IMG/VR virus record: IMGVR_UViG_3300032117_000020
Reading direction: 5' to 3' (one strand)
Origin: a virus
Length of the DNA: 64,000 bases
The notes beneath the pieces were generated by a model that was given only the letters and a program-made list of their open reading frames with translations, had not been told where the DNA came from and made no database searches. Each line of letters begins with the position of its first letter. The first letter of the stretch is position 1. This document shows, piece after piece, positions 2,615 to 38,552 of the stretch. The position numbers and the translations under genes are program-made.

Positions 2615-3223
2615 ATGAACATTACCAAATCACATATTAAACAATCAATCGCTGTGGGATTGAGAAAAGGTGTATACAGCAAAGAGGCATCAATGCTGTA
2701 TAGCGCCCTTAATCCTTTATTTTTCAACATTGATCCTAAAATCTCTGAAATAGGAGATATTTATGTTGAAAATCTTGCAGAAGCAGCATTTATTGCGCTT
2801 CAAAACAACGAAGACCCCGTAATAGCAATGAAGGCAGCCTCGCTAGATAGAATTGAGATCAAAGATGCACCTCTAACCCTCACACCAGAAAACCAAGGTT
2901 TAAAATGTTTAAAAAGTATGTTGCCATTATTTGAAAATTCGGTACATAAAATTGATCTTGATAAAGATGGCATTTATAATTTTTATGATTATGACATCAA
3001 GAATGATTGGGAGCTGCGAGGATATGTGGGTAAATCAGAAATGTGGATTGCAGTTGCTGTATTGCTAAAGCTTGCTGAAGAAATTCCTGAGGTAAAAGAA
3101 AAATTTGCGCCATATCTTGTGTCAGATATCCCCACACTATGTAATGCGCTATACAATGCATCGTTAAATATGCAAGATGATGACTGGGTTTCATTATGGA
3201 GCTGGATTGAATATGCAGCCTGA
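2615..3223 (+). CDS. hypothetical protein (202 aa)
   Basis: ORF track. Confidence 0.55.
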   Translation: MNITKSHIKQSIAVGLRKGVYSKEASMLYSALNPLFFNIDPKISEIGDIYVENLAEAAFIALQNNEDPVIAMKAASLDRIEIKDAPLTLTPENQGLKCLKSMLPLFENSVHKIDLDKDGIYNFYDYDIKNDWELRGYVGKSEMWIAVAVLLKLAEEIPEVKEKFAPYLVSDIPTLCNALYNASLNMQDDDWVSLWSWIEYAA

Positions 3224-3443
3224 TTACATTGAGATAGCCAAAAATGCAGGCATTTATATCAATATCAAACATCCGATTGCAAAACTTTCAAGGCAAGGCA
3301 AGGATAATGTTCATCCATCTGCATTTGATAGTCTTGCTAATTTTTATCAGATCAACATCACAAAAGAATTAAAGAAATATGATATTGAATGGAGTATTGA
3401 AGAAGGCAGAAAAGTGATATCAGCATATCTATTTGGAGAATAA
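3213..3443 (+). CDS. hypothetical protein (start refined to ATG 3213, overlapping upstream stop)
   Basis: ORF track 3177..3443; in-frame ATG at 3213 overlaps stop of upstream gene. Confidence 0.4.
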   Translation: MQPDYIEIAKNAGIYINIKHPIAKLSRQGKDNVHPSAFDSLANFYQINITKELKKYDIEWSIEEGRKVISAYLFGE

Positions 3444-3447
3444 ATAA

Positions 3448-3681
3448 ATGAAATATTATCAGAAAATTAAGAAAGGCGAGTTTGGCATTGATGTGCTGTA
3501 TACCAAAGATGATTCTGAGGATCTTTATATCATTAGAGATGTGAGAGAAAAATCCGTTCGACAGCTTCTTGGACCAGATTATGATTATCTATATTCTCGC
3601 AATATCACAAAATATGGTTTTGAGTATTGTGTAAAGATGAATGACAGTCACTATAGAATTTTAAAAGATGAATGCCAATGA
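3448..3681 (+). CDS. hypothetical protein (77 aa)
   Basis: ORF track. Confidence 0.5.
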   Translation: MKYYQKIKKGEFGIDVLYTKDDSEDLYIIRDVREKSVRQLLGPDYDYLYSRNITKYGFEYCVKMNDSHYRILKDECQ

Positions 3682-3883
3682 ATTTAAAATAGGCGATATT
3701 GTGATATATCAAGGATTTAATGAGCGTGTAATAGGCACAGTTTATGATGTTCTTGACGACGAACATATTAGAGTGAATCCAATATGCTCTAAATTTCGAC
3801 TATATATAGATATCTCATACCATAGTAAATGGTTTCAACATTATGTGCCCAAAAATATTCCACAATACTTTAAAGAATTATGA
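3668..3883 (+). CDS. KIGD/PEYF mini-protein family member 1 (array A)
   Basis: N-term NEFKIGDIV, C-term PQYFKEL; tandem array with ATGA overlaps. Confidence 0.6.
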   Translation: MNANEFKIGDIVIYQGFNERVIGTVYDVLDDEHIRVNPICSKFRLYIDISYHSKWFQHYVPKNIPQYFKEL

Positions 3884-4116
3884 ATAGATTTAAGATAGGA
3901 GATATGGTAGTTTTAAGGGCTGAAGAAAAATCATCTCCGGAAGTGGTTATTGCTGGCAAAGTAACTAAACTTTTAGATCGAGGTGAATTTAATATGAAAG
4001 TAATGTATTTGGTCGCACCAAAATATTTGGATGATGAAGTCTGCAATCCTGGCACCAGATGGCGCGAAGGTGGATTTAGATTAATGATTTTTTGTCCAGA
4101 ATATATGAAACAATAA
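3880..4116 (+). CDS. KIGD/PEYF mini-protein family member 2 (array A)
   Basis: N-term RFKIGDMV, C-term CPEYMKQ; ATGA overlap. Confidence 0.6.
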   Translation: MNRFKIGDMVVLRAEEKSSPEVVIAGKVTKLLDRGEFNMKVMYLVAPKYLDDEVCNPGTRWREGGFRLMIFCPEYMKQ

Positions 4117-4125
4117 AATAAAGCA

Positions 4126-4338
4126 ATGAAAGAATTTAAAATAGGAGAAATATTGTATGTGGACTATAAAAAAGAAGCGCGTTTAATATGTGAGGTCGTA
4201 GATGTCAATGATATTGGATGCGTAAAAATTACCACAGTTTCTGGCAACATAGAATATGATAAAGAAAAATATTGGCCGTCATATGTCTTTAATAGATATA
4301 GTAAGAAAAACATTCCACAATATTTTAATGAATTATGA
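4126..4338 (+). CDS. KIGD/PEYF mini-protein family member 3 (array A)
   Basis: N-term EFKIGEIL, C-term IPQYFNEL. Confidence 0.6.
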   Translation: MKEFKIGEILYVDYKKEARLICEVVDVNDIGCVKITTVSGNIEYDKEKYWPSYVFNRYSKKNIPQYFNEL

Positions 4339-4535
4339 GAAAATTTAAGATTGGAGATATAGTGACATACAGCCAGACTGGTCATCACATAATTGGCATG
4401 GTTATAGATGTCAATATATATAACGACTGCTCAATTAAAATTATTCGTTCTAATCTTGGGCACATCGGCACAACTTCTTGCTCATCTAAATATTTATCAT
4501 TTCTTCATATTCCACAATATTTTAATGAATTATGA
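4335..4535 (+). CDS. KIGD/PEYF mini-protein family member 4 (array A)
   Basis: N-term KFKIGDIV, C-term IPQYFNEL; ATGA overlap. Confidence 0.6.
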   Translation: MRKFKIGDIVTYSQTGHHIIGMVIDVNIYNDCSIKIIRSNLGHIGTTSCSSKYLSFLHIPQYFNEL

Positions 4536-4750
4536 GAAAATTTAAGATTGGAGATATAGTGAAGTATAGGGGTTTTCTATGTGGAAACTATGCAGTTGGT
4601 TATGTAAGAGAATTTTGCCCAGATAATCTAAAATTCAAAATGGATATACTTTACAGCAATATTAATTATATTGACAGTACCGTGGCATTGCCAATATCAA
4701 AAACTAGTTCACCCACGCTAATATGCCCAGAATACTTTAAAGAATTATGA
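4532..4750 (+). CDS. KIGD/PEYF mini-protein family member 5 (array A)
   Basis: N-term KFKIGDIV, C-term CPEYFKEL; ATGA overlap. Confidence 0.6.
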   Translation: MRKFKIGDIVKYRGFLCGNYAVGYVREFCPDNLKFKMDILYSNINYIDSTVALPISKTSSPTLICPEYFKEL

Positions 4751-4977
4751 ATAAATTTAAAATTGGAGATATTGTTGTGAGAAACAATTATCAAAACACA
4801 AATTACAGAGTTATCGGAGAAGTTATAGATCGACCACTGCACATGTTATCTATGAAAACATTTTTCATGAGAGTTATTTCTTCATGCAACACACATGCCA
4901 CGGATGGAGAGTATAGCGAATGTTATTATGATTTATATCATAATAAATGCCCTGAATATCTTAAAATTTCACAATAA
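4747..4977 (+). CDS. KIGD/PEYF mini-protein family member 6 (array A)
   Basis: N-term KFKIGDIV, C-term CPEYLKISQ; ATGA overlap. Confidence 0.6.
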   Translation: MNKFKIGDIVVRNNYQNTNYRVIGEVIDRPLHMLSMKTFFMRVISSCNTHATDGEYSECYYDLYHNKCPEYLKISQ

Positions 4978-5037
4978 GCTCAATTTTTGAGAAAAATTTT
5001 CCGATTTAGGGATCAATTATCTTCCTTAAGGCTTGAT

Positions 5038-5067
5038 AATTTCCCGATAAAAATAAAAATCATAATG
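5038..5067 (+). promoter_or_regulatory. conserved promoter-like motif with upstream hairpin module (CAATTATCTTCCTTAAGGCTTGATAAT)
   Basis: motif AATTTCCCGATAAAAATAAAAATCATAATGA; ATG at 5072; same composite element recurs at 55804..55858. Confidence 0.55.
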
Positions 5068-5071
5068 AGAT

Positions 5072-5245
5072 ATGAAAGAATTTCATATTATCACCATCAA
5101 TAAATTCAATGAATATCTAGTCACTGAGGCAATTGATTGCTCACTGTATGAAGCAGCACTATTATGGAGAAATAAAGATTGTCATATTGTACATGCTTTT
5201 CCTATTACGGAAGCGCAATATGAGGAATGGCATAAAAATGATTGA
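5072..5245 (+). CDS. small hypothetical protein (57 aa)
   Basis: manually read ORF immediately after promoter motif; below ORF-track length cutoff. Confidence 0.4.
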   Translation: MKEFHIITINKFNEYLVTEAIDCSLYEAALLWRNKDCHIVHAFPITEAQYEEWHKND

Positions 5246-5558
5246 AAAATACAGCAAAGATAATGTTATCATGTTTGAGATAGGTGATGAATTTTTTATT
5301 CTCGATAAAAAGAAGCAATATTTTCTAGATTTTTATATCGAATTTTTCACGGCGCTGAAGGATCATTCAATTTCGTATGAAATCAGAAATCCTAGTAAAT
5401 ATGACCTAATTGATTTTAATGAAAGTCGTGTATCTGCATCCATTTCTCATATAGGAATCCGTGCAGAATATTATAGTGGCAATCGATATATTGACAAAGA
5501 CTATAATATCGCAGATTTTATCAAATTTTTGAAGAGAAGAAAGAAGCAGTATGAATAA
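5238..5558 (+). CDS. hypothetical protein (track ORF 5133..5558; start refined to ATG 5238)
   Basis: in-frame ATG at 5238 overlaps upstream stop (ATGATTGA). Confidence 0.45.
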   Translation: MIEKYSKDNVIMFEIGDEFFILDKKKQYFLDFYIEFFTALKDHSISYEIRNPSKYDLIDFNESRVSASISHIGIRAEYYSGNRYIDKDYNIADFIKFLKRRKKQYE

Positions 5559-7189: not shown

Positions 7190-7219
7190 AATTTCCCAAC
7201 AAAAATAAAACCTATAATA
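7189..7219 (+). promoter_or_regulatory. conserved promoter-like motif
   Basis: AAATTTCCCAACAAAAATAAAACCTATAATA; ATG at 7224. Confidence 0.55.
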
Positions 7220-7223
7220 ACAC

Positions 7224-9329
7224 ATGATTCAAAAACAGACAACTATCAACACAACTTCGTCGGGCATTGATGTGCAGAAGGCATTTGGTATGAATTCTGA
7301 CGATATGCCTCATATCTTTAAGATTCTAAGAAATAACATCTACTCCAATAAGCCGCTGGCTGTTCTTAGGGAATATTTTTGCAATATGATCGATGCCCAT
7401 GTCATGGTCGATCAAGTTGATATTCCAGGAGAAATCACATTTCCTTCTGCTTTTGATCTGAATCTTAAGTTTAGGGATTTTGGACCTGGATTGTCTGAAC
7501 AAGATGTTTATGATATCTTTACCAAATATGGCGCATCCACCAAGCGTAATAATTCAAGCACAATGGGCTGTCTTGGTATCGGTTCTAAATCAGCATTTTG
7601 TATGACCAATAATTTTACAGTTGTGAGTTATTATGGTGGATTTAAAACAACCTATCTTTGCCATCTTGATCAAACTGGTCTTGGTCTTTGCTCTAAACTT
7701 GAACAGCAGATGTCTAGCGCCCCAAATGGCGTAGAAATTATTGTGCCAGTAAAGCACAATGAGATAAATTCTTTTGTGGAAGAGGCTAAGAAACTTTTCG
7801 TTTGGTCTAAAGTCAAGCCAGTTATCTATGGCAATGAAGAACTGGCAAATTATGTGAGGGGATTTAAACTTGATGTTGTGAGAAGCAGCAGTAATTGGCG
7901 ACTTTATAATATTCCATGTTCATATTTAAACTATGGACACAACTATTTAAACTATGAAATTATCTGTTTAATGGGCAATATTCCATATCCTATCAATCTT
8001 CAGCATTTTGATCGATATAATCCTAAGCATGCATTCTTCATGAAAAGTGGTGTAGGTCTGGTCATTGAAGTAGAACTGGGCGCTGTGAGTTTCAGCGCAA
8101 ACCGAGAAACGCTTGAATATGACAAAGACACTGTGGCTTATCTTCATAAATGCCTTGAAAATGTGTATGATGAAATTGAGGCTGAATTCAATAAGGCCCT
8201 TGCCCAAGCCCCCACATACTGGGATGCACTCATCAGATACGGTGAATATTCACAATATTTTGGAGCAATTAAACCCACATATAAAGGGAATGTGATTTCA
8301 AATGATTCATATGTCATTGAAAATGAGCAGTCAAAAAAAGCCGATGGTGGAAGTTTTTGGTCAGACATGGTTCGTTGCTATAATTACACCAATAGATACA
8401 GTGATATCAAAAAAGGCTCTATTCGACCAGAGAGACAGGCTTATATTTGCCCATCCAAAAAGCCAGTATTGTTTATGAACAAGGGAGACTTCCCCGAATC
8501 CACACTAAGAGATCGATTCTTTTATTATTGCGAAGCCAATAACATTGATCCGCGCAACACAGGCTGTACAATTATCACTATTACAGATGATACAAAAAGA
8601 GCAGAGTTTCTTGCAAGACCAGAACTTGATGGTACAAATTTTATTGATATGGCAGATATCATTGTGCCACCTAAAATTAGAAAAAAGCCTATCTACAAGA
8701 CTGTTGATAAGAGCAAGATTCAAATTCTTAAATACAATGGCTCCACACTATATCCCTACAGCAATTGCTGGGATGAGGCGAAGGTGGATAAAACTGACAA
8801 GATTATCTATGTGAGGATTGAAAAGTATGCGCCTATGTCGGATAAAATTGGCGATTTCAACAATAAACTTGGACAATATAAGTATCACTTTAAAGATGAT
8901 ATCGTGGTCTATGGCGTTAAAAAGGATGTAAAGGTGCCTAGTCATTGGGTAGAATACAGCGATTATATCAAAGAAAAGATCCAATTGAAAATTAAATCAT
9001 CTGAATTCAAAAAATATCATCAGGCAAAGAAGTTTTTCTCTGACCATATTAATGTAGATGAATTCAAGCCAGAAAAGCTAGATTCGGGATTGTTTAAGAA
9101 TTATGTGCTGAAGTGCGCAGAAATGTTGGTTCATCTAAACACAGCAAAGGTCACTGAATTCAACAGTTATGAAAGAGTGGCAAACCTTTTTAAAATTCCT
9201 GTGAACGACACATATCCCACATCCAGAGCGCTTTATTTAGAAAAAATTCTCAATAGATACCCGCTTCTTAAATTCTTAAGAACTTGGGTGGTAGAGGACG
9301 TTACGGAATATATTAATTATATCGATTAA
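7224..9329 (+). CDS. Hsp90/HtpG-like GHKL ATPase (701 aa)
   Basis: N-terminal YSNKplaVLRE..NmiDA resembles the Hsp90 YSNKEIFLRELISNASDA motif; FRDFGPGL and GCLGIGSKSAF match Bergerat-fold G1/G2 boxes. Confidence 0.6.
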   Translation: MIQKQTTINTTSSGIDVQKAFGMNSDDMPHIFKILRNNIYSNKPLAVLREYFCNMIDAHVMVDQVDIPGEITFPSAFDLNLKFRDFGPGLSEQDVYDIFTKYGASTKRNNSSTMGCLGIGSKSAFCMTNNFTVVSYYGGFKTTYLCHLDQTGLGLCSKLEQQMSSAPNGVEIIVPVKHNEINSFVEEAKKLFVWSKVKPVIYGNEELANYVRGFKLDVVRSSSNWRLYNIPCSYLNYGHNYLNYEIICLMGNIPYPINLQHFDRYNPKHAFFMKSGVGLVIEVELGAVSFSANRETLEYDKDTVAYLHKCLENVYDEIEAEFNKALAQAPTYWDALIRYGEYSQYFGAIKPTYKGNVISNDSYVIENEQSKKADGGSFWSDMVRCYNYTNRYSDIKKGSIRPERQAYICPSKKPVLFMNKGDFPESTLRDRFFYYCEANNIDPRNTGCTIITITDDTKRAEFLARPELDGTNFIDMADIIVPPKIRKKPIYKTVDKSKIQILKYNGSTLYPYSNCWDEAKVDKTDKIIYVRIEKYAPMSDKIGDFNNKLGQYKYHFKDDIVVYGVKKDVKVPSHWVEYSDYIKEKIQLKIKSSEFKKYHQAKKFFSDHINVDEFKPEKLDSGLFKNYVLKCAEMLVHLNTAKVTEFNSYERVANLFKIPVNDTYPTSRALYLEKILNRYPLLKFLRTWVVEDVTEYINYID

Positions 9330-9346
9330 TTAATATCAAAATCAGA

Positions 9347-9376
9347 AATTCTCAATTAAAATAAAAAGTATAATAT
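9347..9376 (+). promoter_or_regulatory. conserved promoter-like motif (variant AAATTCTCAATTAAAATAAAAAGTATAATA)
   Basis: ATG at 9384. Confidence 0.5.
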
Positions 9377-9383
9377 ATCAACT

Positions 9384-10724
9384 ATGAAAACATATCAACC
9401 AAAAGCAAAAATTTTCAGCATCAGTGATAAAAACGAGGGTTTTATCACGGTCACATGGCCTGGATTATCAAAGACTGTGAGGTCAGATGATCCGCAATGG
9501 GAAAACTCCGTAAATGCGTTTAAATCAGAAAATTGGGAGGCACTTTATTATGCCATGAATCCTATTGAAACTCTGAATAAACTCTCCTACGGCAATATCA
9601 CCTACACCGATGGCGCACTGTATTACAAGGATCGTGTGGTAAATCACTCTCTTTACGAGCGAGTTCGACAGAATCTTAAAAACGGTTTTAGCGTGACATC
9701 AATGCTCGCATTCCTGGACAATCTTTATCAGAATCCATCTTTCAACAGCATTAGTCAATTGTATGCGTTTTTGGAGCAGCGGAATATTCCTATCACAGAT
9801 GATGGATGTTTTCTTGCATACAAGGCTGTAAGGTCCGACTACTACGATAAGTATTCCGGCACGATTCTTAACACTGTGGGCAAGATTGTGGAGATGGATC
9901 GAAGTCAGATTGATGACAACCCTTCGGCGTATTGCAGTTATGGTCTGCATGTGGGCGGACTTGACTATGTGAAGTGGTATGGCAATTTATCTGATGATAG
10001 AGTGATGATCGTAAAGGTGAATCCAAAGGATGCTGTAAGTGTGCCGTCAGATCACAGTTTCCAGAAGCTTCGAGTTTGCAGATATGAGGTTGTGGATGAA
10101 TATACAGCACCGTTAGAGGGCAATGTTTATAAGGCATCCTTAAACTCTGTTACAGATATGTCGGGCTCAGTATGTGATGAGGATTCATGGTGCGGTGGCT
10201 CCTGCACATGCTACGATGCAGATGATTCAGACATGTTTGATTTTGATGATCTGGATTATGATTTTTATCATGATTTTCAAAACAACAGTGGCTGGGTTTT
10301 AAGGGTTAAATATGATTCTGAATCCAAAACGCTGATTCTTGAGCATGATGAGCACAATACTGGCGCTCTTGAATACTATGGTCATCTCAATGTGCCAAAG
10401 CGAGTTGTAGAAAGTTTCGTATCAGCATACCGCCCAGGCGAGTACTATCATCGATATATCATGAATAAGTATGAGAAATTCGATGTGGGAAATGTTGATG
10501 ATTCAACAAATGAGAATGAAAATGATGAACTTGAAACCTATGATTTTTCAAGCGTCAGTTCATGGATCAGCCATGCCATCTATAATCATTACACTCAGGA
10601 ACTTGAAGTTGTACTGAAGAACGGCACATCATATCTTCATGAGTACGTAATTGATGCGGAGTGGGATGACTTCAAAAATGCAGACAGCCCAGGTACATTC
10701 TACAATGAAGTGCTGAAGGCTTAA
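9384..10724 (+). CDS. hypothetical protein with acidic Cys/Asp-rich central segment (446 aa)
   Basis: ORF track; promoter motif upstream; followed by strong hairpin. Confidence 0.55.
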   Translation: MKTYQPKAKIFSISDKNEGFITVTWPGLSKTVRSDDPQWENSVNAFKSENWEALYYAMNPIETLNKLSYGNITYTDGALYYKDRVVNHSLYERVRQNLKNGFSVTSMLAFLDNLYQNPSFNSISQLYAFLEQRNIPITDDGCFLAYKAVRSDYYDKYSGTILNTVGKIVEMDRSQIDDNPSAYCSYGLHVGGLDYVKWYGNLSDDRVMIVKVNPKDAVSVPSDHSFQKLRVCRYEVVDEYTAPLEGNVYKASLNSVTDMSGSVCDEDSWCGGSCTCYDADDSDMFDFDDLDYDFYHDFQNNSGWVLRVKYDSESKTLILEHDEHNTGALEYYGHLNVPKRVVESFVSAYRPGEYYHRYIMNKYEKFDVGNVDDSTNENENDELETYDFSSVSSWISHAIYNHYTQELEVVLKNGTSYLHEYVIDAEWDDFKNADSPGTFYNEVLKA

Positions 10725-13178: not shown

Positions 13179-13622
13179 ATGAATAACACGGAATCACATA
13201 TGGCATCAAAAAGTATATTGAACTATGCTGTAAAGCAGGCAATTCTAAATCCGCATGAGTCTAAGTTATGCGCTGTATTATATAAAGGTGGGTCTATTAT
13301 TCGATCATCTTTCAATACATCGCAGCACATTGGATATCGTGCGGATGTTTTTGAATTTGCACCTACCAGACATGCAGAGCAGTCGGTGCTGCATAATGTG
13401 CCAAGAGATATTCTTTCTTCCTGTAGCATTCTTGTGGTGCGAGTAAATAGAAAGAATGAGATTGTGAGCGGAAAACCATGTAAAGCCTGCCTACAGGCTA
13501 TTCAGAAGTCTGGGATATCCAAACTTGAGTTTTCCAATTATCTTGGAGAGATTGAAAAAGTGAATGCACAGCTTATTGATGTTGACAGATGGAAGAAGGA
13601 AATATCGCCTGTGAATTTATGA
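13179..13622 (+). CDS. CMP/dCMP-type zinc-dependent deaminase
   Basis: HAE...PCKAC zinc-binding signature (H-A-E and P-C-x-x-C); start could also be GTG 13164. Confidence 0.6.
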   Translation: MNNTESHMASKSILNYAVKQAILNPHESKLCAVLYKGGSIIRSSFNTSQHIGYRADVFEFAPTRHAEQSVLHNVPRDILSSCSILVVRVNRKNEIVSGKPCKACLQAIQKSGISKLEFSNYLGEIEKVNAQLIDVDRWKKEISPVNL

Positions 13623-13837
13623 AATATAAGGTTGGAAATAAAGTTAAGTTGAAAGGGCCTCGTTATTGGGACAACAAAGATCGGAACCTCAATAGTAAAA
13701 TCGGTCAAATTGTTGATATCACCCGTTTCAATTATTATGTCAAAATTGTAGGTTCATCGGATATCGCCGTTGTTGATGATGAGTGGATCAGCCATCAAAT
13801 TATCATCAACTGTCCGGAATATTTTAATGAAATATAA
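13619..13837 (+). CDS. KIGD/PEYF mini-protein family member (array B)
   Basis: MKYKVGNKV... INCPEYFNEI; ATGA overlap with deaminase stop. Confidence 0.55.
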   Translation: MKYKVGNKVKLKGPRYWDNKDRNLNSKIGQIVDITRFNYYVKIVGSSDIAVVDDEWISHQIIINCPEYFNEI

Positions 13838-14060
13838 AATTGGTGATCAAATTAAATTAAAACAAAATTTTAATAATCCTTTTTGGAAGAATAAAATTTG
13901 GCCATTTCATGGTCAGATTGCTACAATTATTGATATCGTAGATAATGAATATTATGGCATTATTTATAAAAATAAAACTTATGGCGAGATTAGTGACGAT
14001 TGGATCGTAGATAGAGATAATATAAAGTGTCCAGAATATATGAAATTGGAGAAATTGTAA
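13827..14060 (+). CDS. KIGD/PEYF mini-protein family member (array B)
   Basis: MKYKIGDQI... IKCPEYMKLEKL; ATGA overlap. Confidence 0.55.
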   Translation: MKYKIGDQIKLKQNFNNPFWKNKIWPFHGQIATIIDIVDNEYYGIIYKNKTYGEISDDWIVDRDNIKCPEYMKLEKL

Positions 14061-14242
14061 GAGATTTACGGTTTAAAAATCAATATGTGGAGATTATTGA
14101 ATATTCACCACCTGCTGGGCATTCGCCAGGATACTATCGAGTTAAATCACTCGTCACTGGCGCAAAAAGAATAAATAAACCCACAGAATTAAAGCCAATA
14201 ATCATCAAACCAGATTATTTTTCAGAATTAATTTTACAATAA
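14027..14242 (+). CDS. KIGD/PEYF mini-protein family member (array B, GTG start)
   Basis: SRIYEIGEIV... KPDYFSEL; no in-frame ATG, GTG start. Confidence 0.45.
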   Translation: MSRIYEIGEIVRDLRFKNQYVEIIEYSPPAGHSPGYYRVKSLVTGAKRINKPTELKPIIIKPDYFSELILQ

Positions 14243-14289: not shown

Positions 14290-14322
14290 AAATTTTCCCA
14301 GTAAAAACAATAACCATAATAA
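14290..14322 (+). promoter_or_regulatory. conserved promoter-like motif with upstream TTCAAATCTCTATGAAA hairpin
   Basis: AATTTTCCCAGTAAAAACAATAACCATAATA; ATG 14326. Confidence 0.5.
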
Positions 14323-16167: not shown

Positions 16168-19100
16168 GTGTGGTATCGTTTCGCAGGCAAAGCAGATATA
16201 TTGAAAATTCTGAACAATGATGATGCTTTGTATCAGAAAGTAAAGAATGCGGTAAGAGATATACCACCTCAAAAACAATCAAAATATGAATATGTGGTGG
16301 CGAAATTCATAGATCAATCGCCAGAAAATCTCTACCATTATATTAATAAATTGTTTGAACTGCATGATAAATATCATTTTCCACTTGATGTGGGAAACAA
16401 GCAGATTATATTTAACAAGGCTCTTGTAAACGATTGGTTTTCTTTTGAGCAAAAAGTTGATGAACTTCTTGGCAAAAAACAATTTGAAAAATCTCAAAAA
16501 ACGAAACCACAAATTTCATTTGAAGAGCCTGAAATCAATCGAAAAAATGTGGTTGAAATATTCCCAATAAACAGCCCACAGGATGGAATGAAATTTAATG
16601 CTGTGCTACCATGGCAAACCTCATCGCCCTGGTGTATCACATCGATCAGAAATAACCAATATTATCGCTACCGCCTTGATCAAAAGGCTACTTTTTATAT
16701 TGTTATTGATCATACACGTCCTATTACAGACAAATGGTATGCTGTAGCACTGGATCATCTTCCGCATGGCTATTTTCTCACAGATTTACAGAATGGTTCA
16801 GAATATGGTGCAGATCAGTATCTTAAAGAACTTATTCAGCATATGAAAGAAAATGGTGATGAAAGAGATATTTATTCCCTCACGCCACATAAACCCTTTA
16901 CACAAGAAGAAGAAAACGAAAATCGTATTTTGGGTGAAGAGTTAAATTATAATGAATTTTTAAATTTAGACAAATCTGGAATTGAAGATGCACAGCTTAA
17001 ATACATTATCCGAGGCCATATTTTAGATTATGATCAGTTTAGACTTATATTAAACGCGCCGAAATTATTAAAGGCATACCTTACCACAGGCACTCCAAAA
17101 CCATCGAATCAAATTGAAAGTCTCAATCATAATGCCCGAGCAACTTATGAAAGAGAAATAGATAAAAAGATTGAATCATCCAAGCAGATGGGGCAATTAA
17201 ATGTCTTGTATCAACAAACCAATTATAACGAAGATTTTGTGAAAAAGGTTATAGAAGCCGGAGGCGACGTTTCAAAAGGGCTTGTTGCACTTAAAAATAT
17301 GGGAAAAGTAGAGTTCTCATATCTTGAAACACTCATTAGCAATGGGAAATTAGATGCGAATAAAGCGGTGCCATATCTAAAGTCCCCAAAACCCGAGCAA
17401 TTAAAATGGCTGTCTGATAAGGGCGCAGATCCTAATAATTATTATGCATATAGTTGGGCAAAAAATCTTGGATTTGTGAAATGGGCCATTGAAACTTATG
17501 GGGATGTAAAGCTGACACCTGACCAGATTGAATTATTTGCTGATAATTTGGATCAAGTGAAGCATTTTATTCAATGTGGCTTTGATCGTTCACAGATTAT
17601 TAGCAATACATCAAATTATGATGTAAAAGATTATTGCATCGACACAATATCAGATCCAAAAACAGCCACGAAGTGCCTCCATGCGCTGAGGTGTCGCACA
17701 CATGAAACTAAAAAATTAATCGAAAAAGGTGCGGATATCAACACCGCTCTAGAAGTTAATTGCCGAGAAGCCTGCGTTGATACATTGAAGATGATTATCA
17801 ATGATTATAATGTAGATCTTTCAAAAGATTTATTTGTTAGCGAAAAATTACAGCCAGCAAATAAATCATTGGCAATAAAATTTGCCAATGATAAAGATTT
17901 TATTCCATTTTTACTAAGTAAAGGACTAGACCCTTTACTGGTATTGGGCAACAGCAGCGATACAGGTGTCATAGCATCGTTGAACATAGACCCCAATATA
18001 ATTTTAAACAAATTAATTAAAATCGGTGGTTCCGACAAATATGCCCAGTTTTTGCTCGACAAAGGTGCTGACCCCACAGGTGTCTTGGGCCTTTTGCCCA
18101 CATACACCCATGACCTTGAATTGGTTAAAAATATTATTGAAAAGGGTGCTGATCCAAATAAATGCCTTCAATACATTAATAAAAATCCCGAGCTTTTGAG
18201 ATTATGTGTGGAAAAAGGAGCAGGTTTGAATAATGCGGCTCCATATGCTATAAATGATGTTGATTTTAAATGGCTGTTGGATAAGGGCGCTTATCCGGAC
18301 AATATTTTGGGCCAATCAAATATCAACAGAAATGTGATATTTATGTGCGTGGAGAAGGGTGGCAATCCTTCCCAGGCGCTAAAAGCCTACATAGAGTTGG
18401 ATAATCAAAATACAAACGATTTTAAAGAGCTGGCGGATCTTATCGATAACCCAGATGTTATTTTAGAATGTCTAAATCGTACATTTAGGCTCACTAGAGA
18501 AAATAAATTTGAACTTGTTAAATGGGTGATAGATCATAAAAATGGTGATGTTCATCGCCCATCATTTTTAAATATGATCTGCGGCAGAGAAGAAGTTTTG
18601 GTTTTGGCTATAAATAATGGACTAGAGCCTAATATCGCATTGAAATCTTTTAAGAATACCATACAAAATCTTTCCACAGTTGAACTTTTGCTAAATAAGG
18701 GTGTGGATTTTAGTGTGCCTGAAAACCTTAAAAACATAAAATTTGGTGACAGCGATATGATGGTTTATCTGTTTGAGCATGGCGTAAATGCTACGGCTCT
18801 TTTGCCGCTCGTAAATACAGATGATATGGTTATGTACCTTTTAAACAATGGCGCTGACCCCAATGAAACCTTAAAATATCTTCGTGGTCGCACCTACTTT
18901 TTTAAAGGAGATTTGAGCCAATTGGTTAAAGATTGCGTGGAGAGAGGCGCTGAGCCAAACAACGCAAATGGTATGATTTTTCAGGACAATGCTCTCATTA
19001 AATGGCTTTTAGAAAGAGGCGCAGATATTAATCTTATAGCCGATCAGGCCGCCTGGGACCCGCAGTTTTTTAGATTCATGCTGGAAAAAGGCGCAAAGCC

Positions 19101-20034
19101 TCACATATTGAATGATACTATGCCAAGCGATGCAAGAGATCCGCAATTTTTAAAGATGTTGGTTGATAAAGGGCTCCCAGTACATAACGTTGCATATAAT
19201 CATGCCATGGCGCACCCAATGATGATCGACTGGTTTTTAGACAGGTCAGACGACAAATCCTACAGCACTTCCGGCGTGATTGTAGAAGATCTTCTTGGCA
19301 CAGATTCTTATGTCAGTGAACCAAACTGTCAAATGTTTTCTAAAATCTCTCCTAAAACTGCGTATAGATTATACAAATTGCAGCGATCTTTCTATGAGTG
19401 GCGTGATTTTATGAATGCATCCATCACCTGCATAGATAAACAATATGGAGAAAAATGGAGGCTTGGATTTGTGAAACTTTTGGTGGAAGATGGCAAAATT
19501 GATCCAAAGATGATATCATTTTTTGCCACAAATCAGAGAGAATATAGTGTTCTAGATTATTTATTGTCTAAAGGCGCAGGCATAGATCAGGTGCTCTCAG
19601 AGTCTTATTATGACCTTGATGTGATTAAGTATCTTCTAGGTAAACAGTACATTGATGCAGATCAAGCGCTCGAATATGCGTTAAAACATGGTGATCATTA
19701 TGAAAATAGTGGTTTATTGTTGGATCTGATAGATATGGGCGTGGATGAACATGCTCTTCTTAAGGGAGCAAGGGCTTCTAAATCAGTTTTGGAGAAACTT
19801 TTACGGAAAGGAGCAAACCCAAATGAGTTGCTTAAAAGAGTGTTGCCATATATAAGCAAACTTCCAAAAGAAGATCAAGATGAATCTGTAGCGTGTTTAA
19901 TTACACATGGTGCGAATCTTGACACCATACTTCAATATCAGCCCATAGACAAAGATGTGCGAAAATCTTTTGAAGAATTTAAAAAGCATAAAGAAAGCAT
20001 TCAGAAAAAAATAGATATGCTACCAGGTCAATGA
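16168..20034 (+). CDS. giant ankyrin-repeat protein (1288 aa)
   Basis: >15 repeats of ~33 aa with KGADPN/ L..G.DPN signature; GTG start. Confidence 0.6.
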   Translation: MWYRFAGKADILKILNNDDALYQKVKNAVRDIPPQKQSKYEYVVAKFIDQSPENLYHYINKLFELHDKYHFPLDVGNKQIIFNKALVNDWFSFEQKVDELLGKKQFEKSQKTKPQISFEEPEINRKNVVEIFPINSPQDGMKFNAVLPWQTSSPWCITSIRNNQYYRYRLDQKATFYIVIDHTRPITDKWYAVALDHLPHGYFLTDLQNGSEYGADQYLKELIQHMKENGDERDIYSLTPHKPFTQEEENENRILGEELNYNEFLNLDKSGIEDAQLKYIIRGHILDYDQFRLILNAPKLLKAYLTTGTPKPSNQIESLNHNARATYEREIDKKIESSKQMGQLNVLYQQTNYNEDFVKKVIEAGGDVSKGLVALKNMGKVEFSYLETLISNGKLDANKAVPYLKSPKPEQLKWLSDKGADPNNYYAYSWAKNLGFVKWAIETYGDVKLTPDQIELFADNLDQVKHFIQCGFDRSQIISNTSNYDVKDYCIDTISDPKTATKCLHALRCRTHETKKLIEKGADINTALEVNCREACVDTLKMIINDYNVDLSKDLFVSEKLQPANKSLAIKFANDKDFIPFLLSKGLDPLLVLGNSSDTGVIASLNIDPNIILNKLIKIGGSDKYAQFLLDKGADPTGVLGLLPTYTHDLELVKNIIEKGADPNKCLQYINKNPELLRLCVEKGAGLNNAAPYAINDVDFKWLLDKGAYPDNILGQSNINRNVIFMCVEKGGNPSQALKAYIELDNQNTNDFKELADLIDNPDVILECLNRTFRLTRENKFELVKWVIDHKNGDVHRPSFLNMICGREEVLVLAINNGLEPNIALKSFKNTIQNLSTVELLLNKGVDFSVPENLKNIKFGDSDMMVYLFEHGVNATALLPLVNTDDMVMYLLNNGADPNETLKYLRGRTYFFKGDLSQLVKDCVERGAEPNNANGMIFQDNALIKWLLERGADINLIADQAAWDPQFFRFMLEKGAKPHILNDTMPSDARDPQFLKMLVDKGLPVHNVAYNHAMAHPMMIDWFLDRSDDKSYSTSGVIVEDLLGTDSYVSEPNCQMFSKISPKTAYRLYKLQRSFYEWRDFMNASITCIDKQYGEKWRLGFVKLLVEDGKIDPKMISFFATNQREYSVLDYLLSKGAGIDQVLSESYYDLDVIKYLLGKQYIDADQALEYALKHGDHYENSGLLLDLIDMGVDEHALLKGARASKSVLEKLLRKGANPNELLKRVLPYISKLPKEDQDESVACLITHGANLDTILQYQPIDKDVRKSFEEFKKHKESIQKKIDMLPGQ

Positions 20035-20065
20035 ATCTAAGTCATAGAATATATTATTGATGAGA

Positions 20066-20097
20066 ATTTTTTCCCATTAAAATCAAAAAACATAATA
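20066..20097 (+). promoter_or_regulatory. conserved promoter-like motif
   Basis: AATTTTTTCCCATTAAAATCAAAAAACATAATA. Confidence 0.5.
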
Positions 20098-20128
20098 AAA
20101 AAGCAAGCGCAATTTGCGGAGCAACCTT

Positions 20129-21403
20129 ATGATCAAAAATGCAAAATATATCTATGTAGATGCAGTCAATAATAACAACAAATTCTGGAATATTGAAATT
20201 GATGCCAGTCATACCGTGACTACCTTCTGGGGTCGTGTTGGTGATGAGGGACAATCAAAATCCTTTCCTCATAACTCCGACTATGCTGCAGAAGCGTTCT
20301 TCAATAAGAAATGTCGAGAGAAGGAAAATAAGGGATACACAGTTCAGCGAACCATCAACAACGGCGCATCCGGTCCCACAGTGAAGGTTGTGGAGAGCCA
20401 TAATCTTGAGAATATTGCAAAATCTCAGATTCAAACCAACTCGCCAGAATTGGGTAAGCTGATTTCATATCTCGCCAAAGCAAACGCTCATAGTATTTTG
20501 TCCCAAACATCCATGCAATATAATGATGCCACAGGACTTTTCTCTACGCCATTGGGCATTGTGGATCAAGAGGCAATTGATGAAGCAAGAACATTGCTAT
20601 TAAAGATTAGTGATATGGTGCAGGCTAAAGATTATCGCGAAGATCGATTTATGCCTGTGCTGAGCAATTATCTAAGAATTATTCCTCAAGATATTGGAAG
20701 AAAGCGTCCAAATCCTGAACTATTGTACCCAGATCTTGAGTCAGTGCAGAGGCAGAATAATGTACTGGATTCTCTTGAGGCATCGCTTCAGGTGGCCCTG
20801 TCACCTAAAAATGATGGTGATAACCATACTACTGAGAAAGTTTTTGACGTGAAACTCCACACCGTGGAAGATCTTGGAATTATTGATAGGATTCGCAACA
20901 GCCATTACTCCACAAGGCAGCGCATGCATGCCACCTATAATCTTGATGTGAAAAAGATTTATGAGATTGAAATCGGCAGCATGAAGCGAGCATATGAGGA
21001 AAAGGGCAAAACACTAGGAAATATTTTTGAATTGTTTCATGGTAGCAGAATTTCCAATATTTTAAGTATTCTTCATAAGGGCCTTATGGTTCCACCATCA
21101 AATGCAGGTCATGTATGCGGAAGAAATTTTGGAAACTACACATATTTCGCAAATCAATCCACCAAAAGTCTCAACTATTCATATGGATATTGGGACAACA
21201 AGGCCAAGGACAACAATTGTTTCTTGTTTATTGCTGATGTGGCGCTGGGCAACTATTATGTGCCCGGATACAGCCAACAGGTAATTCCAAATGGATATGA
21301 CTCCTTTTGGGCTAAGGCTGGAAGATCTGGCGTACAAAATGATGAGATTGTGGTAAGAAATACATTTCAGGCTAATCTTAAGTATTTGGTTGAATTTGCC
21401 TAA
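20129..21403 (+). CDS. poly(ADP-ribose) polymerase homologue (WGR domain + PARP catalytic domain)
   Basis: N-term KFWNIEID...WGRVGDEG...KGYT = WGR; C-term LFHGSRISNILSILHKGL, GNYTYFAN, FLFIADVALGN, NDEIVVRNTFQANLKYLVEF match the PARP1 H-Y-E catalytic signature almost residue for residue. Confidence 0.8.
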   Translation: MIKNAKYIYVDAVNNNNKFWNIEIDASHTVTTFWGRVGDEGQSKSFPHNSDYAAEAFFNKKCREKENKGYTVQRTINNGASGPTVKVVESHNLENIAKSQIQTNSPELGKLISYLAKANAHSILSQTSMQYNDATGLFSTPLGIVDQEAIDEARTLLLKISDMVQAKDYREDRFMPVLSNYLRIIPQDIGRKRPNPELLYPDLESVQRQNNVLDSLEASLQVALSPKNDGDNHTTEKVFDVKLHTVEDLGIIDRIRNSHYSTRQRMHATYNLDVKKIYEIEIGSMKRAYEEKGKTLGNIFELFHGSRISNILSILHKGLMVPPSNAGHVCGRNFGNYTYFANQSTKSLNYSYGYWDNKAKDNNCFLFIADVALGNYYVPGYSQQVIPNGYDSFWAKAGRSGVQNDEIVVRNTFQANLKYLVEFA

Positions 21404-22495: not shown

Positions 22496-22525
22496 AAATT
22501 TCCCATTAAAAATAAAAATCATAAT
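22496..22525 (+). promoter_or_regulatory. conserved promoter-like motif
   Basis: AAATTTCCCATTAAAAATAAAAATCATAATG; ATG 22531. Confidence 0.5.
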
Positions 22526-22530: not shown

Positions 22531-22809
22531 ATGATTACTCTACAGGACTTAAAAACAGCAAACAATAAAAATGGAGACAATTACTTTGACTCCAATACTC
22601 TACGATTCTTCAACTCTACTATCAGTGAAATTAAGGGAGAAAAAGGAAAATTCGCCTATTTCATTGAGACAATTCACTATAATTCTCGCCCTACTCATAA
22701 AATAAGAAAGTTTGTGTGGGTAGGTGAGAATAAGGGCAGGGTTGAGAAAAAGACCTATGGAACCTATAAAACCATGAATGGCGCAATAAAAGGGCTGAAT
22801 AGGATTTAA
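22531..22809 (+). CDS. hypothetical protein (92 aa)
   Basis: ORF track. Confidence 0.5.
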   Translation: MITLQDLKTANNKNGDNYFDSNTLRFFNSTISEIKGEKGKFAYFIETIHYNSRPTHKIRKFVWVGENKGRVEKKTYGTYKTMNGAIKGLNRI

Positions 22810-23036
22810 TGACTATAGACATCTATGACATAAAAGTTGGTCAAATGGCTTGCATTACCGACTGTGAAGATAAAACATGGATTGGCACACTGGTTAAGGG
22901 AGTTTCGGCAAATCTTTTCATGGTTGTTAAGTCCAGAGACAAGTACATCATAAAAGGAAACGTCTATAAGGCGGTCAAAAGAATTGCTGTAATTGGGCAA
23001 TTAATTACAATAAATTGTCCAGAATATATGAAATGA
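22809..23036 (+). CDS. KIGD/PEYF mini-protein family member (array C)
   Basis: IKVGQMA... INCPEYMK. Confidence 0.55.
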   Translation: MTIDIYDIKVGQMACITDCEDKTWIGTLVKGVSANLFMVVKSRDKYIIKGNVYKAVKRIAVIGQLITINCPEYMK

Positions 23037-23260
23037 CAAACAAAGACATAAAGATAGGTCAAACGGTTAAAATTATCGGTAATTGCGGTGAAGGATGGAT
23101 GGGCACAATTGCTCAAAAAGCCAATTATGATGTATATGTCATAATTAAAAGTCCGCTAAGACCAGAAGATGTGGGTAAAGCGTTCCATTCGCAGGTTTCT
23201 TTGCTAAGATTAGTGACCGAAAATTGTCCAGAATATTTTAATGAGCTACAAAATAAATGA
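23033..23260 (+). CDS. KIGD/PEYF mini-protein family member (array C; start refined to ATG 23033)
   Basis: MTNKDIKIGQTV... ENCPEYFNEL; ATGA overlap. Confidence 0.55.
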   Translation: MTNKDIKIGQTVKIIGNCGEGWMGTIAQKANYDVYVIIKSPLRPEDVGKAFHSQVSLLRLVTENCPEYFNELQNK

Positions 23261-25008: not shown

Positions 25009-25239
25009 ATGGAAGAATTACCTTTAAAAATTGGAGATTATTGCCGATATTTCCAGGGAGTCAGATATGTAAGAGGTAAAATTTTAGATCACAAATCTGG
25101 CTGTTTTTATGTTAAATTTAATAAAGATATTTGGAAAAGTCTTCCTGGAAAGATGGAGGCATGGATTTATGCAGATGAGGTTGAGCCAATTATGCATGTG
25201 AAATGTCCAGAATATATGAAAGAATATGAACTACGATAG
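25009..25239 (+). CDS. KIGD/PEYF mini-protein family member (array D; start refined to ATG 25009)
   Basis: MEELPLKIGDYC... VKCPEYMKEYELR. Confidence 0.5.
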   Translation: MEELPLKIGDYCRYFQGVRYVRGKILDHKSGCFYVKFNKDIWKSLPGKMEAWIYADEVEPIMHVKCPEYMKEYELR

Positions 25240-25453
25240 AAAAGAAGTCACATCAGTATATACGATCTATTATCTAAATGATAAAATCCATCGCACTGAT
25301 GGTCCTGCTACTATTTATGAAGATAGAACCATGGAATATTATATTGATGATGTGCAATATTCAAAAAAAGAATACTATAGAATTATAAAACCACCTAAAT
25401 GTCCTGAATATATGAAATTTCCCAATAAAAATAAAAGAGATAATATTACATGA
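25226..25453 (+). CDS. family-related mini-protein with CPEYMK C-terminus but divergent N-terminus
   Basis: ...PPKCPEYMKF; lacks KIGD. Confidence 0.45.
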   Translation: MNYDRKEVTSVYTIYYLNDKIHRTDGPATIYEDRTMEYYIDDVQYSKKEYYRIIKPPKCPEYMKFPNKNKRDNIT

Positions 25454-38481: not shown

Positions 38482-38503
38482 CTGTAATTTTATACAGAAT
38501 TAG

Positions 38504-38532: not shown

Positions 38533-38552
38533 AAGACAAAGGAAACAAAACT

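Follow-up and report, generated by a model that had tools for sequence, protein, structure and literature searches.

Closest described systems

The closest known fold to the mini-proteins described here is that of the SH3-like small beta-barrels, which include PsaE/NdhS, the KOW domains of uL24, NusG and Spt5, Tudor domains, and YorP of B. subtilis SPbeta. Known families of such barrels lack the constant C-terminal tail that is a feature of the present family, and we know of no SH3-like barrel family with more than 100 paralogues in a virus. Large gene families of eukaryotic viruses, such as the ASFV MGF, the amplified K3L of poxviruses and the ankyrin and BTB families of giant viruses, are generally linked to host interaction. 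Like the genes studied here, they form tandem, dispersed arrays of diverged paralogues in accessory regions. However, they belong to viruses that infect eukaryotes and are monocistronic, and their gene accordions consist of near-identical, recent copies, unlike those of this phage.

Among phages, the internal proteins of T4 are highly diverse save for a short conserved capsid-targeting sequence, and one of them, IPI*, blocks a restriction system (PMC3012670). The present family resembles these proteins (IPI, IPII, IPIII and the polymorphic IP locus) in that a constant address label is attached to a variable body. In T4 the label is N-terminal, cleaved and targeted to the prohead core, whereas here it is C-terminal and the bodies have one fold. 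The present family also has a copy number higher by one to two orders of magnitude, and its genes lie in accessory operons. No T4-type N-terminal targeting sequence with a prohead-protease site was found in the family, whose conserved N-terminus forms the barrel's opening strand and turn. T4 gp43, gp55 and gp33 have in common interchangeable C-terminal clamp-binding peptides that are hydrophobic and acidic (PMC2988020). The tail of the present family is likewise hydrophobic and acidic and also ends proteins with unrelated N-domains, but its sequence differs and the window (the whole 64-kb stretch of DNA that was analysed) showed no clamp or clamp-binding proteins.

In the hyperplastic regions of T4-type phages, accessory ORFs are reshuffled by homologous recombination at conserved patches (PeSL), for which less than 50 bp suffices (PMC2839356). 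The present arrays resemble this arrangement in that junctions identical over 54 nt flank variable cores and that the gene order is permuted in a sister phage. However, PeSL consist of an intergenic promoter and stem-loop, whereas the patch here is coding (the tail and the head of the next gene) and leaves no intergenic space. In array 1, the promoter and terminator of a PeSL were not found; the genes overlap by 4 nt, and the promoter-like motif of this phage lies outside the arrays.

The arrays and their setting

The window derives from an uncultured lake phage that is distantly T4-like and covers an accessory, non-structural region, with genes that include rIIA, rIIB, a PARP-like gene, NAMPT and DnaJ. 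For one backbone protein, cultured relatives are at most 39% identical and no relative was found in IMG/VR. Six arrays of mini-protein genes lie at the coordinates originally predicted, all on the + strand, and together hold 23 domain copies (6, 3, 2, 2, 5 and 5 in arrays 1 to 6). The arrays are usually located at the far end of operons, and these operons carry a promoter-like motif that is common to rIIA and NAMPT. This motif, TCCC-N3-AAANATAA-N5-ATAAT, occurs directly 3′ of array 1 (5042–5066, + strand), with equivalents on the same strand after arrays 2, 4 and 5 (14296, 25420 and 32609, respectively). Its 21 copies are all on the + strand, and none is expected by chance.

Array 1 begins with copies A (3668–3883, 71 aa, tail IPQYFKEL), B (3880–4116, 78 aa, CPEYMKQ), C (4126–4338, 70 aa, IPQYFNEL) and D (4335–4535, 66 aa, IPQYFNEL), each identified as an ORF with a profile match. 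These are followed by copy E (4532–4750, 72 aa, CPEYFKEL), which served as the input for AF2 model 1, and by the last copy, F (4747–4977, 76 aa, CPEYLKISQ), which keeps P-E-Y without a coupled gene downstream. Array 2 is made up of copies at 13619–13837 (72 aa, CPEYFNEI), 13827–14060 (77 aa, CPEYMKLEKL) and 14027–14242 (71 aa, GTG start, KPDYFSELILQ), and array 3 of two 75-aa copies at 22809–23036 (CPEYMK) and 23033–23260 (CPEYFNELQNK). In array 4, a copy at 25009–25239 (76 aa, CPEYMKEYELR) precedes a protein at 25226–25453 that ends in the tail CPEYMK and has an N-domain with HRTDGPA-type repeats; its final residues are encoded within the promoter-like motif at 25420–25444. The prediction that every member has both the FKIGD N-terminal motif and the tail holds broadly and fails for the N-domain of this protein.

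The first copy of array 5 (31490–31714, 74 aa, SPEYFKEL) lies directly 3′ of a radical-SAM gene (30621–31484). It is followed by copies at 31711–31965 (84 aa, CPEYFNEINESQRY), 31937–32158 (73 aa, KPEYMKE, product P0005), where the N motif is degenerate, 32155–32370 (71 aa, KPEYFDDNCN) and 32354–32575 (73 aa, CPNYFYES). Array 6 starts with a copy at 33531–33728 (65 aa, MPKYMKEPK), after which copies 2 and 3 are fused into one 131-aa ORF (33725–34120; copy 3 at 33914–34120, tail CPEYFKELK). The fusion is due to a single additional A within the A8 run 33874–33881, through which copy 2 leaves its ...KKLIDYPEYMKEL frame and enters copy 3, and the identical fused product (P0004) was found on two contigs. 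Copy 4 (34117–34314, 65 aa, CPEYMREL) was the input for AF2 model 2. Copy 5 remains as a 5′ fragment (34311–34396, MNFKIGDKV...), the remainder having been lost to insertion of an IS607-like element on the − strand (34396–36344; TnpB at 34419–35714, serine recombinase at 35698–36261). The end of this array had been placed at 34418, but the intact genes stop short of that position and the last copy is cut at ~34396. The right end of the element lies at or past 36344; the element is 91% identical at the nucleotide level to L011 1–1948, which occupies a different site in the sister phage. A few members of the family are frameshifted or truncated.

Consecutive genes had been described as joined throughout by 4-nt stop/start overlaps of the GAATTATGA type. 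Such overlaps occur in 10 of the 14 family junctions, the other four having overlaps of 14–29 nt or a 9-nt gap. The 4-nt overlap is also present in 14 of 101 non-family junctions and is therefore enriched in the family without being exclusive to it. Two further readings of the junctions were considered. A −1 frameshift polyprotein was rejected on the basis of array 1, where the downstream frame stops 3–6 nt before the ATG and TTT-AAA, as read from the sequence, is out of register for a slippery heptamer. Stalling of the nascent peptide at the stop codon is unlikely, given that array-terminal copies, which no coupled gene follows, keep the motif at a distance of 5–16 codons from the stop.

A large and undescribed family

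The arrays are real protein-coding genes of one lineage-specific, very large family. A profile built from array 1 alone finds the other arrays, with all of its top-scoring matches on the + strand, and a 20-member profile gives 22 domain matches on the + strand of the window and none on the − strand. The tail pattern P-x-Y-[FMLIY], at most 20 residues from the stop, occurs in 21 + strand ORFs, as compared with 0.83 ± 0.91 (maximum 4) in 100 simulated sequences. At a G+C content of 30–35%, the calculated chance of ~70 stop-free codons is ~0.004 per ORF. Over array 1, the window matches ten independent assemblies at 100% identity, and this array is therefore not an assembly artefact.

The original prediction of at least 22 copies captured a real family but understated its size. 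In addition to the 23 copies in the window, further members were found on contigs assigned to the lineage through shared samples, the promoter motif and the family itself, which may belong to a co-occurring relative instead of the same genome, bringing the total to 102 distinct sequences. No pair among these is at least 70% identical, and one 15-kb stretch holds ~42 members. To our knowledge, phage genomes are thought to be too economised for large paralogous families, the known cases having a handful of copies. Against that view stands a single family that accounts for ~20% of the genes and 7.5% of the DNA of the window and of which 102 individually maintained members were found in the lineage.

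The family is undescribed, as had been suspected when it was not recognised from its sequence. No Pfam family reaches its threshold, PHROGs gave no match, and cultured phages yielded none by blastn or tblastn. Only chance matches were obtained from IMG/VR (four, inside large unrelated proteins) and from bacterial genomes (seven), and a word-index search of proteins found none beyond those of the window itself. Neither the tail sequence nor a phage family of comparable scale was found in a literature search.

Conserved termini and variable cores

The proteins are ~65–85 aa in length, most of them ~70 aa. The first hairpin has the consensus [FY]-K-[IV]-G-D-x-V, and the C-terminal tail follows [IML]-x-C-P-E-Y-[FM]-[KN]-E-[LI]. 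The Pro and Tyr of the tail are present in all 93 tails, whereas its Cys occurs in 54% and I, L or M at position −3 in 62%. The Gly of the N motif is found in all 86 N motifs, which were extracted with that Gly as the anchor. In array-terminal copies, P-x-Y-hydrophobic is kept and K-E-L is lost. An LxCxE (Rb-pocket) or KDEL-type motif was rejected on account of the frequencies at Cys and −3, the invariant Pro and Tyr, neither of which LxCxE needs, and the origin of the sequence from a phage genome.

Among residues conserved between the two phages, 46% of those in the N motif are encoded by different codons, as compared with 33% for the tail and 43–50% for backbone genes. Every conserved column shows synonymous variants, and only the Leu codon TTA is forced, owing to the TTATGA overlap, which accounts for the use of TTA in 13 of 15 K-E-L leucines. 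Synonymous turnover in the motifs equals that in backbone genes, and therefore selection acts on the amino acids; this shows that the N motif and the tail are conserved as protein and not as DNA. A DNA-level element (a promoter, recombination site or RNA) was rejected as the main cause of conservation because of this turnover and because the tail is not at a constant distance from the next start, which means that a fixed DNA element is absent. Rfam gave no match, and array 1 (3000–5400) holds 16 sigma-70-type sites, 15.2 being expected, and no terminator-like sites. The K-E-L end of the tail may owe part of its sequence to the start of the next gene, which overlaps it.

The tail is a separable module and also ends proteins with unrelated N-domains. 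These comprise proteins of the HRxDGPA-repeat type (at 25226 in the window and as two diverged copies on L037), GYRIV-type proteins (L044) and a 111-aa protein (L021 206–541). Recombination at junctions could be an alternative origin of these combinations, though the retention of the tail in the diverged HRxDGPA paralogues of L037 argues for selection. The 111-aa protein was also considered as a gp33-like clamp-binding coactivator and rejected as such for want of PHROG support. It adjoins an AAA ATPase that is not recognisably a clamp loader, and it has no gp33 match.

An SH3- or KOW-like fold had been suggested for the family, and such a barrel in the N-terminal part is supported by structure prediction and profile matches. 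AF2 models five strands with a pLDDT of 79.4 that falls to ~62 in the tail, in agreement with the strongly bent antiparallel barrel of ~55–65 residues that characterises SH3-like small beta-barrels. Profile matches were obtained to uL24, KapB, PsaE and the KOW domain of NusG, and multi-repeat proteins that match the N-domain have Pfam matches to a mix of SH3-like families. Membership of the KOW family itself (PF00467) was not supported, none of 20 members matching it even at E-values up to 5. The signal on the KOW side is a weak profile match to the N-terminus of uL24 alone (E = 0.002 over 34 residues).

The proposed combination of conserved termini with diversified cores is upheld both by core similarity and by the regional identity of orthologues. 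The latter reaches 66% for the N motif and 61% for the tail, as compared with 41% for the middle and 32% for the C-terminal half, such that the poorly conserved second half of the barrel is the region that differs most between orthologues. Pairwise similarity does extend beyond the termini, with 32 pairs of cores scoring at least 25 bits and none in the shuffled control, but it is weak, and only 17–29% of held-out cores are detectable. Because core similarity is weak, a variable binding surface and relaxed constraint are not distinguishable.

Old, reshuffled copies and their coding junctions

Each copy of array 1 has one orthologue in the sister phage, at 37–46% identity as compared with 56–86% for backbone proteins. 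On L021, the orthologues of copies B to F lie at 9753–10004 (37%), 9550–9756 (40%), 10001–10207 (43%), 10421–10639 (46%) and 10200–10424 (45%). That of copy A is probably at 9342–9557 (37%), an assignment that is marginal, as a different copy of the window reaches 38% against the same gene. The window has the gene order A B C D E F, for which the sister phage has A C B D F E. The copies diverge approximately three times faster than the backbone, and synonymous sites are saturated since the orthologues are only 37–46% identical.

The idea of a gene accordion, with recent amplification of copies, is not borne out. Near-identical copies and copy-number variation were both absent: both phages carry six copies of the gene in this position, and ten assemblies show no polymorphism of copy number or sequence in array 1. 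One-to-one orthology in a permuted order, the lack of any pair at 70% identity or above and the lack of polymorphism therefore show that the copies are old duplicates, which are kept intact, diverge fast and have been reshuffled. Apart from its junctions, array 1 has no long near-identical repeats. One junction (4312–4365, + strand), which spans the tail, the stop/start overlap and the N motif, is identical over 54 nt to the junction at 4509–4562, and the junctions as a family are 61 nt long with 70–95% identity. Junctions with up to 54 identical nucleotides supply a substrate for recombination. Diversity-generating retroelements were rejected as the source of variation, as no two cores are similar enough for a template/variable pair of ~90% identity; no reverse transcriptase was found in the subset of window ORFs scanned.

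Putative function and alternatives

The leading, tentative reading is that the family represents variable binders that would reach one common partner through the constant tail. Its genomic setting makes a putative effector, anti-defence or adaptor role plausible. The copies would then form a set of accessory, non-structural proteins for host takeover or anti-defence, in which the variable barrel surface of each copy would engage a different target. The tail would be a short docking peptide acting in trans, bringing all copies, as well as a few unrelated small proteins that bear it, to the same partner. This partner may be a phage or host hub, for instance a protease, chaperone, clamp-like platform or modifying enzyme; PDZ, TPR, protease and clamp genes were not found within the window. 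Alternatively, the tail might cap the fold structurally instead of serving as a docking peptide, its AF2 confidence being only ~62.

If the tail is a docking or sorting peptide, it would provide a handle for peptide pull-down of a new phage–host hub, and the family would offer a natural collection of small binders built on a scaffold of 60 residues as well as a clear case of coding junctions serving as recombination linkers in cassette shuffling. A more far-reaching version, in which the tail is a universal plug, appears doubtful. It holds that more than 100 interchangeable binders, mostly SH3-like barrels with a few other folds, are plugged into a single hub by a C-terminal peptide of 8–10 residues and that recombination at junctions makes new combinations. 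If true, phages would have an equivalent of the multigene arsenals that giant viruses use in host interaction, built from variable bodies with a constant label and larger than anything described for a phage.

Other explanations differ mainly in what they make of the tail. As a virion sorting signal, it would mark internal or ejected proteins, which would serve as anti-defence cargo co-injected with the DNA. That very diverse small proteins, including other folds, have one short constant peptide in common fits such a signal, and in many tails hydrophobic-x-E precedes L, a sequence that we take to resemble T4 prohead-protease sites loosely. However, the T4 signal is N-terminal and cleaved off, the arrays sit in rIIA, rIIB and NAMPT-type operons behind one common promoter motif and not among head genes, structural genes were not found near the arrays, and more than 100 cargo species would have to compete for capsid space; sorting to the virion is thus unlikely. 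Self-assembly, in which the barrel of one copy binds the tail of another in trans to form mixed chains or a scaffold, draws on the first hairpin and the tail being better conserved than any other part of the protein. Short peptides that contain Pro or are aromatic are typical ligands of SH3-like and Tudor-like barrels, and coupled co-translation would give neighbouring copies a similar stoichiometry. Yet variants of the hairpin and the tail, judged by eye, do not co-vary, and there is no evident reason for a scaffold to keep more than 100 different cores, leaving self-assembly distinctly unlikely. Still less should be expected of the tail as a recognition or modification site for an enzyme, with the family as RiPP-like or otherwise modified substrates of the radical-SAM protein or the PARP-like ADP-ribosyltransferase, a reading that is very improbable. 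RiPPs do include families of many precursors that combine constant recognition parts with variable parts, Cys, Glu and Tyr are close together within the tail, and in both phages a five-copy array lies directly 3′ of the radical-SAM gene, which is 83% conserved between them. This gene, though, neighbours only one of the six arrays, and no radical-SAM gene was called in the stretch read beside the large arrays of L039 and L041. Its 287-aa product leaves little room for a SPASM domain and matches only the generic core (PF04055), scoring 15–29 bits against NCBIfam peptide maturases with cut-offs of 180–650. Moreover, Cys is present in just over half of the tails, and the substrates would be folded barrels as opposed to linear peptides.

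The proteins themselves would matter little if the junctions were kept for translation re-initiation and recombination, the copies being dispensable filler with neutral birth and death at operon ends. Much of the junction architecture agrees with this explanation, since no Shine-Dalgarno sequences were seen upstream of the genes of this phage, the next ATG follows the Pro codon of the tail by 13–23 nt in nearly all junctions, ATGA overlaps prevail, two junctions are identical over 54 nt, and the K-E-L leucine is mostly TTA through the TTATGA overlap. The location of arrays at operon ends, the frameshifted or truncated copies and the weak similarity of cores point the same way. It is nevertheless improbable, considering that the motifs turn over synonymously on a par with backbone genes, that terminal copies keep P-x-Y-hydrophobic without a coupled gene downstream, that more than 100 ORFs of ~70 codons remain open, that the sister phage retains one-to-one orthologues and that the spacing from tail to next start varies.

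Apart from the function of the family, gene expression in this phage seems to start at leaderless operon heads and to continue through stop/start coupling. This combination bears on how translation occurs without Shine-Dalgarno sites.

Array Structure and Copy Number

The tailed mini-proteins form a genuine and undescribed family that is unusually large for a phage. Tandem plus-strand open reading frames (ORFs) of 65 to 84 codons with the described termini are present at all six loci of the original prediction (3668-4977, 13619-14242, 22809-23260, 25009-25453, 31490-32575, and 33531-34418; arrays 1 to 6), and the 23 domain copies counted in the window (6, 3, 2, 2, 5, and 5) accord with the minimum of 22 expected. 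A profile built from array 1 only recovers the other arrays, with all top-scoring matches on the plus strand, and a 20-member profile scanned over the window gives 22 domain matches on the plus strand and none on the minus strand. P-x-Y-[FMLIY] within 20 residues of the stop occurs in 21 plus-strand ORFs vs. 0.83 (maximum 4) in 100 simulated sequences; pooled over every family locus, the motif is seen 146 times on the coding strand vs. 3 times on the opposite one. In addition, array 1 is found at 100% identity in 10 independent assemblies from other samples.

Some genes depart from the initial description. The gene at 25226-25453, taken to carry both termini, has the tail but a different N-domain, and array 6 does not continue as intact genes to 34418, as its last copy is interrupted at ~34396 by an IS607-like element. 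The proposed stop/start overlap between consecutive copies is an exact ATGA at 10 of 14 family junctions; the remainder overlap by 14-29 nt or lie 9 nt apart. Since it also occurs at 14 of 101 non-family junctions in the window, the overlap is a genome-wide habit that the family uses heavily. In array 6, an extra A in the A8 run at 33874-33881 places copy 2 out of frame and joins it to copy 3, producing a 131-aa, two-domain plus-strand ORF (33725-34120). The run could represent a fixed mutation or a transcriptional slippage site giving both forms. Two contigs carry the protein record P0004, a 113-aa product of this fused ORF whose call begins at an internal Met.

Protein Anatomy and Fold

Family members are real small proteins that share a common fold and carry variable bodies. 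When pooled, the N motif reads [FY]-K-[IV]-G-D-x-V, with D in 85% and V in 76% of 86 motifs (G, in 86 of 86, was the anchor for extraction), and the pooled tail is [IML]-[NKD]-C-P-E-Y-[FM]-[KN]-E-[LI]-end, in which P and Y are invariant (100%), E reaches 82%, and C 54% over 93 tails. The SH3/KOW-like character first suspected is upheld for the SH3-like barrel class but not for KOW, as profiles do not place the family there. The AlphaFold2 (AF2) model of 34117-34314 (pLDDT 79.4) has five strands and a tail of lower confidence, an earlier model of 4532-4750 being poorer (pLDDT 73.5, three strands), and a profile search of PDB sequences returned weak but consistent matches to uL24, KapB, PsaE, and NusG KOW. 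Once both termini are removed, 32 core pairs score at least 25 bits vs. none in a shuffled control, and, with the 99th percentile of shuffles as cutoff, a cross-validated core profile detects 17-29% of the cores held out. Similarity thus extends beyond the termini, though it is weak.

Residues 1-45 resemble a widespread FKVGDxVxV-type repeat. Hundreds of long proteins are built from many such repeats and do not have the family tail. These proteins (records P0008-P0150), from metagenomes and one eukaryotic transcriptome, carry up to 30 tandem SH3-like repeats and belong to no clear Pfam family.

Conservation of the Motifs and Separability of the Tail

Codon usage shows that both motifs are conserved as protein rather than DNA and that the constant C-terminal peptide is under protein-level constraint. 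Several synonymous codons occur at every conserved column, roughly at genome usage; the exception is the K-E-L leucine, encoded by TTA owing to the TTATGA overlap. Between the window and a sister phage (contig loci L011 and L021), 46% of conserved residues in the N motif and 33% in the tail use different codons, with 43-50% recoded in five backbone genes taken for comparison. Array-final copies retain P-x-Y-hydrophobic and lose K-E-L, so K-E-L is partly set by the overlapping next start, whereas x-P-x-Y-hydrophobic is not.

The tail also closes small proteins with other N-domains and is therefore a separable module. Among others, these include three diverged HRxDGPA-repeat proteins (window 25226-25453 and two in contig L037), two GYRIV-type proteins (contig L044), and a 111-aa protein (L021 206-541).

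Genomic Setting and Expression Signals

The genome is that of an uncultured phage, only distantly T4-like, and the window is an accessory, non-structural region. Its rIIA (7224-9329; PHROG E 8.5e-93) and rIIB (9384-10724) share at most 28% identity with cultured phages. The rIIB homolog has a KTSC domain at its C-terminus (Pfam E 9.4e-19, two stretches), as does that of the sister phage. Other genes encode a denV-like glycosylase, an SPFH protein, a C5 methylase, an RlaP-like nucleotidyltransferase, and a SprT-like protein; searches of the window for tRNAs and Rfam families found none. At 16168-21403, a 1288-aa ankyrin-repeat protein precedes a 429-aa PARP-like one that combines WGR, PARP regulatory, and catalytic domains, a eukaryote-style architecture in a phage. 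Genes for NAMPT and PRPP synthetase, an NAD salvage pair, neighbor that of a co-chaperone at 36711-41994, a full-length DnaJ with J, zinc-finger, and C-terminal domains; the sister phage keeps all three at 66-86% identity. A 287-aa radical-SAM protein with only the generic core (30621-31484; L011 3020-3883) is 83% identical between the phages.

No Shine-Dalgarno sequences precede the window genes. The motif TCCC-N3-AAANATAA-N5-ATAAT occurs 21 times between 771 and 63337 (e.g., 5042-5066, 7194-7218, 14296-14320, 22501-22525, 28338-28362, 32609-32633, and 38508-38532), all on the plus strand with none expected by chance, and is also found in the sister phage and other family contigs. In most copies it ends 5 nt ahead of an ATG, which suggests leaderless operon heads; it looks like a phage-specific promoter, with downstream genes dependent on stop/start coupling. 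Arrays 1, 2, 4, and 5 terminate just ahead of the next motif and thus lie at the far ends of operons. The family genes have an accessory operon setting with apparently coupled translation. In the gene at 25226-25453, the extension FPNKNKRDNIT past CPEYMK (25403-25453) is a translated promoter-like motif (25420-25444).

Evolution Against the Sister Phage

The family is an old birth-and-death family whose copies have been kept individually and reshuffled. Identity between the two phages is 56-86% for backbone proteins, and the six array 1 copies (A 3668-3883, B 3880-4116, C 4126-4338, D 4335-4535, E 4532-4750, and F 4747-4977) pair one-to-one with six sister-phage copies at 37-46%, which corresponds to a roughly three-fold faster divergence as estimated from -ln(identity). 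Reciprocal best matches are clear for five of the six pairs; copy A is a marginal case, its partner being matched slightly better by another window copy. The order A B C D E F in the window is A C B D F E in the sister phage. Orthologues are 66% identical over the N motif and 61% over the tail vs. 41% in the middle and 32% in the C-half, in line with the predicted conserved termini and diversified cores. The gene accordion also suggested is contradicted, in the sense of a recent amplification, by these one-to-one orthologues and by the absence of any pair at 70% identity among 102 non-redundant sequences.

Arrays 5 and 6 hold five copies each in the window vs. five and three in the sister phage, with blurred orthology, and frameshifts or truncations, often via IS elements, affect a few copies. 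Two adjacent array 1 junctions share 54 identical nt while the cores they flank are 31-38% identical, pointing to gene conversion or unequal crossing-over that seems restricted to the junctions.

Possible Function

The structure and evolution of the family are well supported; its function is inferred. In the leading reading, given somewhat less than an even chance, the members are variable binders whose tail docks in trans to one partner. Each variable barrel would bind a different target, the constant tail would gather all members at that partner, and the few unrelated tailed proteins would be carried to it as well; no candidate partner was found within the window. Two T4-type precedents make this reading reasonable. 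The T4 internal proteins are diverse defence proteins with only a short targeting sequence in common (PMC3012670), and gp43, gp55, and gp33 each dock on the sliding clamp through a hydrophobic and acidic C-terminal peptide that can be swapped among them (PMC2988020).

The tail could instead be a virion-sorting signal, which is unlikely: the internal proteins follow the same logic as the family, but their defining N-terminal signal is missing from it. It is equally unlikely that conservation is a by-product of junction mechanics acting on neutral proteins, a proposal that has the shared 54 nt and the overlap-set K-E-L on its side and the recoded conserved residues against it. Self-assembly of members, tail to barrel, is less likely still. 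That the tail is a substrate tag for the radical-SAM or PARP-like enzyme is highly improbable, even with the radical-SAM gene immediately upstream of the five-copy array in both phages.

PeSL shuffling (PMC2839356) resembles the family in its conserved linkers and permuted order, but PeSL linkers are promoter and stem-loop cassettes, whereas those of the family are coding junctions. Giant-virus multigene families are comparable in scale, whereas the present family occupies a polycistronic phage genome.

Distribution and Mobile Elements

Searches with the family matched no family in Pfam or PHROGs and found no relatives in the IMG/VR, bacterial genomes, or cultured phages searched. Metagenome contigs, scanned for the coding pattern of the tail, yielded 25 loci. 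With all loci pooled, there are 127 domain matches and the 102 non-redundant sequences, a family far larger than originally seen. Thirteen of the 25 loci come from the window's own sample series and are packed with additional members; L039 and L041, joined via L043, together have ~42 copies, which surround a TnpB gene over 15.2 kb. The extra contigs share the promoter-like motif with the window without overlapping it; their source is the same phage or a close relative that occurs alongside it. A second series (ENA GROS21) supplied the sister phage with its syntenic arrays. Contigs L001-L010 and L039-L047 are mostly short, and several terminate within a family array or next to one. Short-read assemblies may be fragmented partly by the repeated junctions, so metagenome copy numbers are probably underestimates.

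The IS607-like element of array 6 (TnpB and serine recombinase; minus strand) spans ~34396 to at least 36344. Its nucleotide identity to L011 1-1948, the copy that the sister phage carries at a different site, is 91%, compared with only 67-78% for the backbone of that phage; thus, the element moved recently. Further TnpB elements lie at L021 10838-12427, L039 2357-3511, and L017 5090-6151, and TnpB elements of the IS607 and IS200/IS605 types are repeatedly located within or adjoining family arrays.
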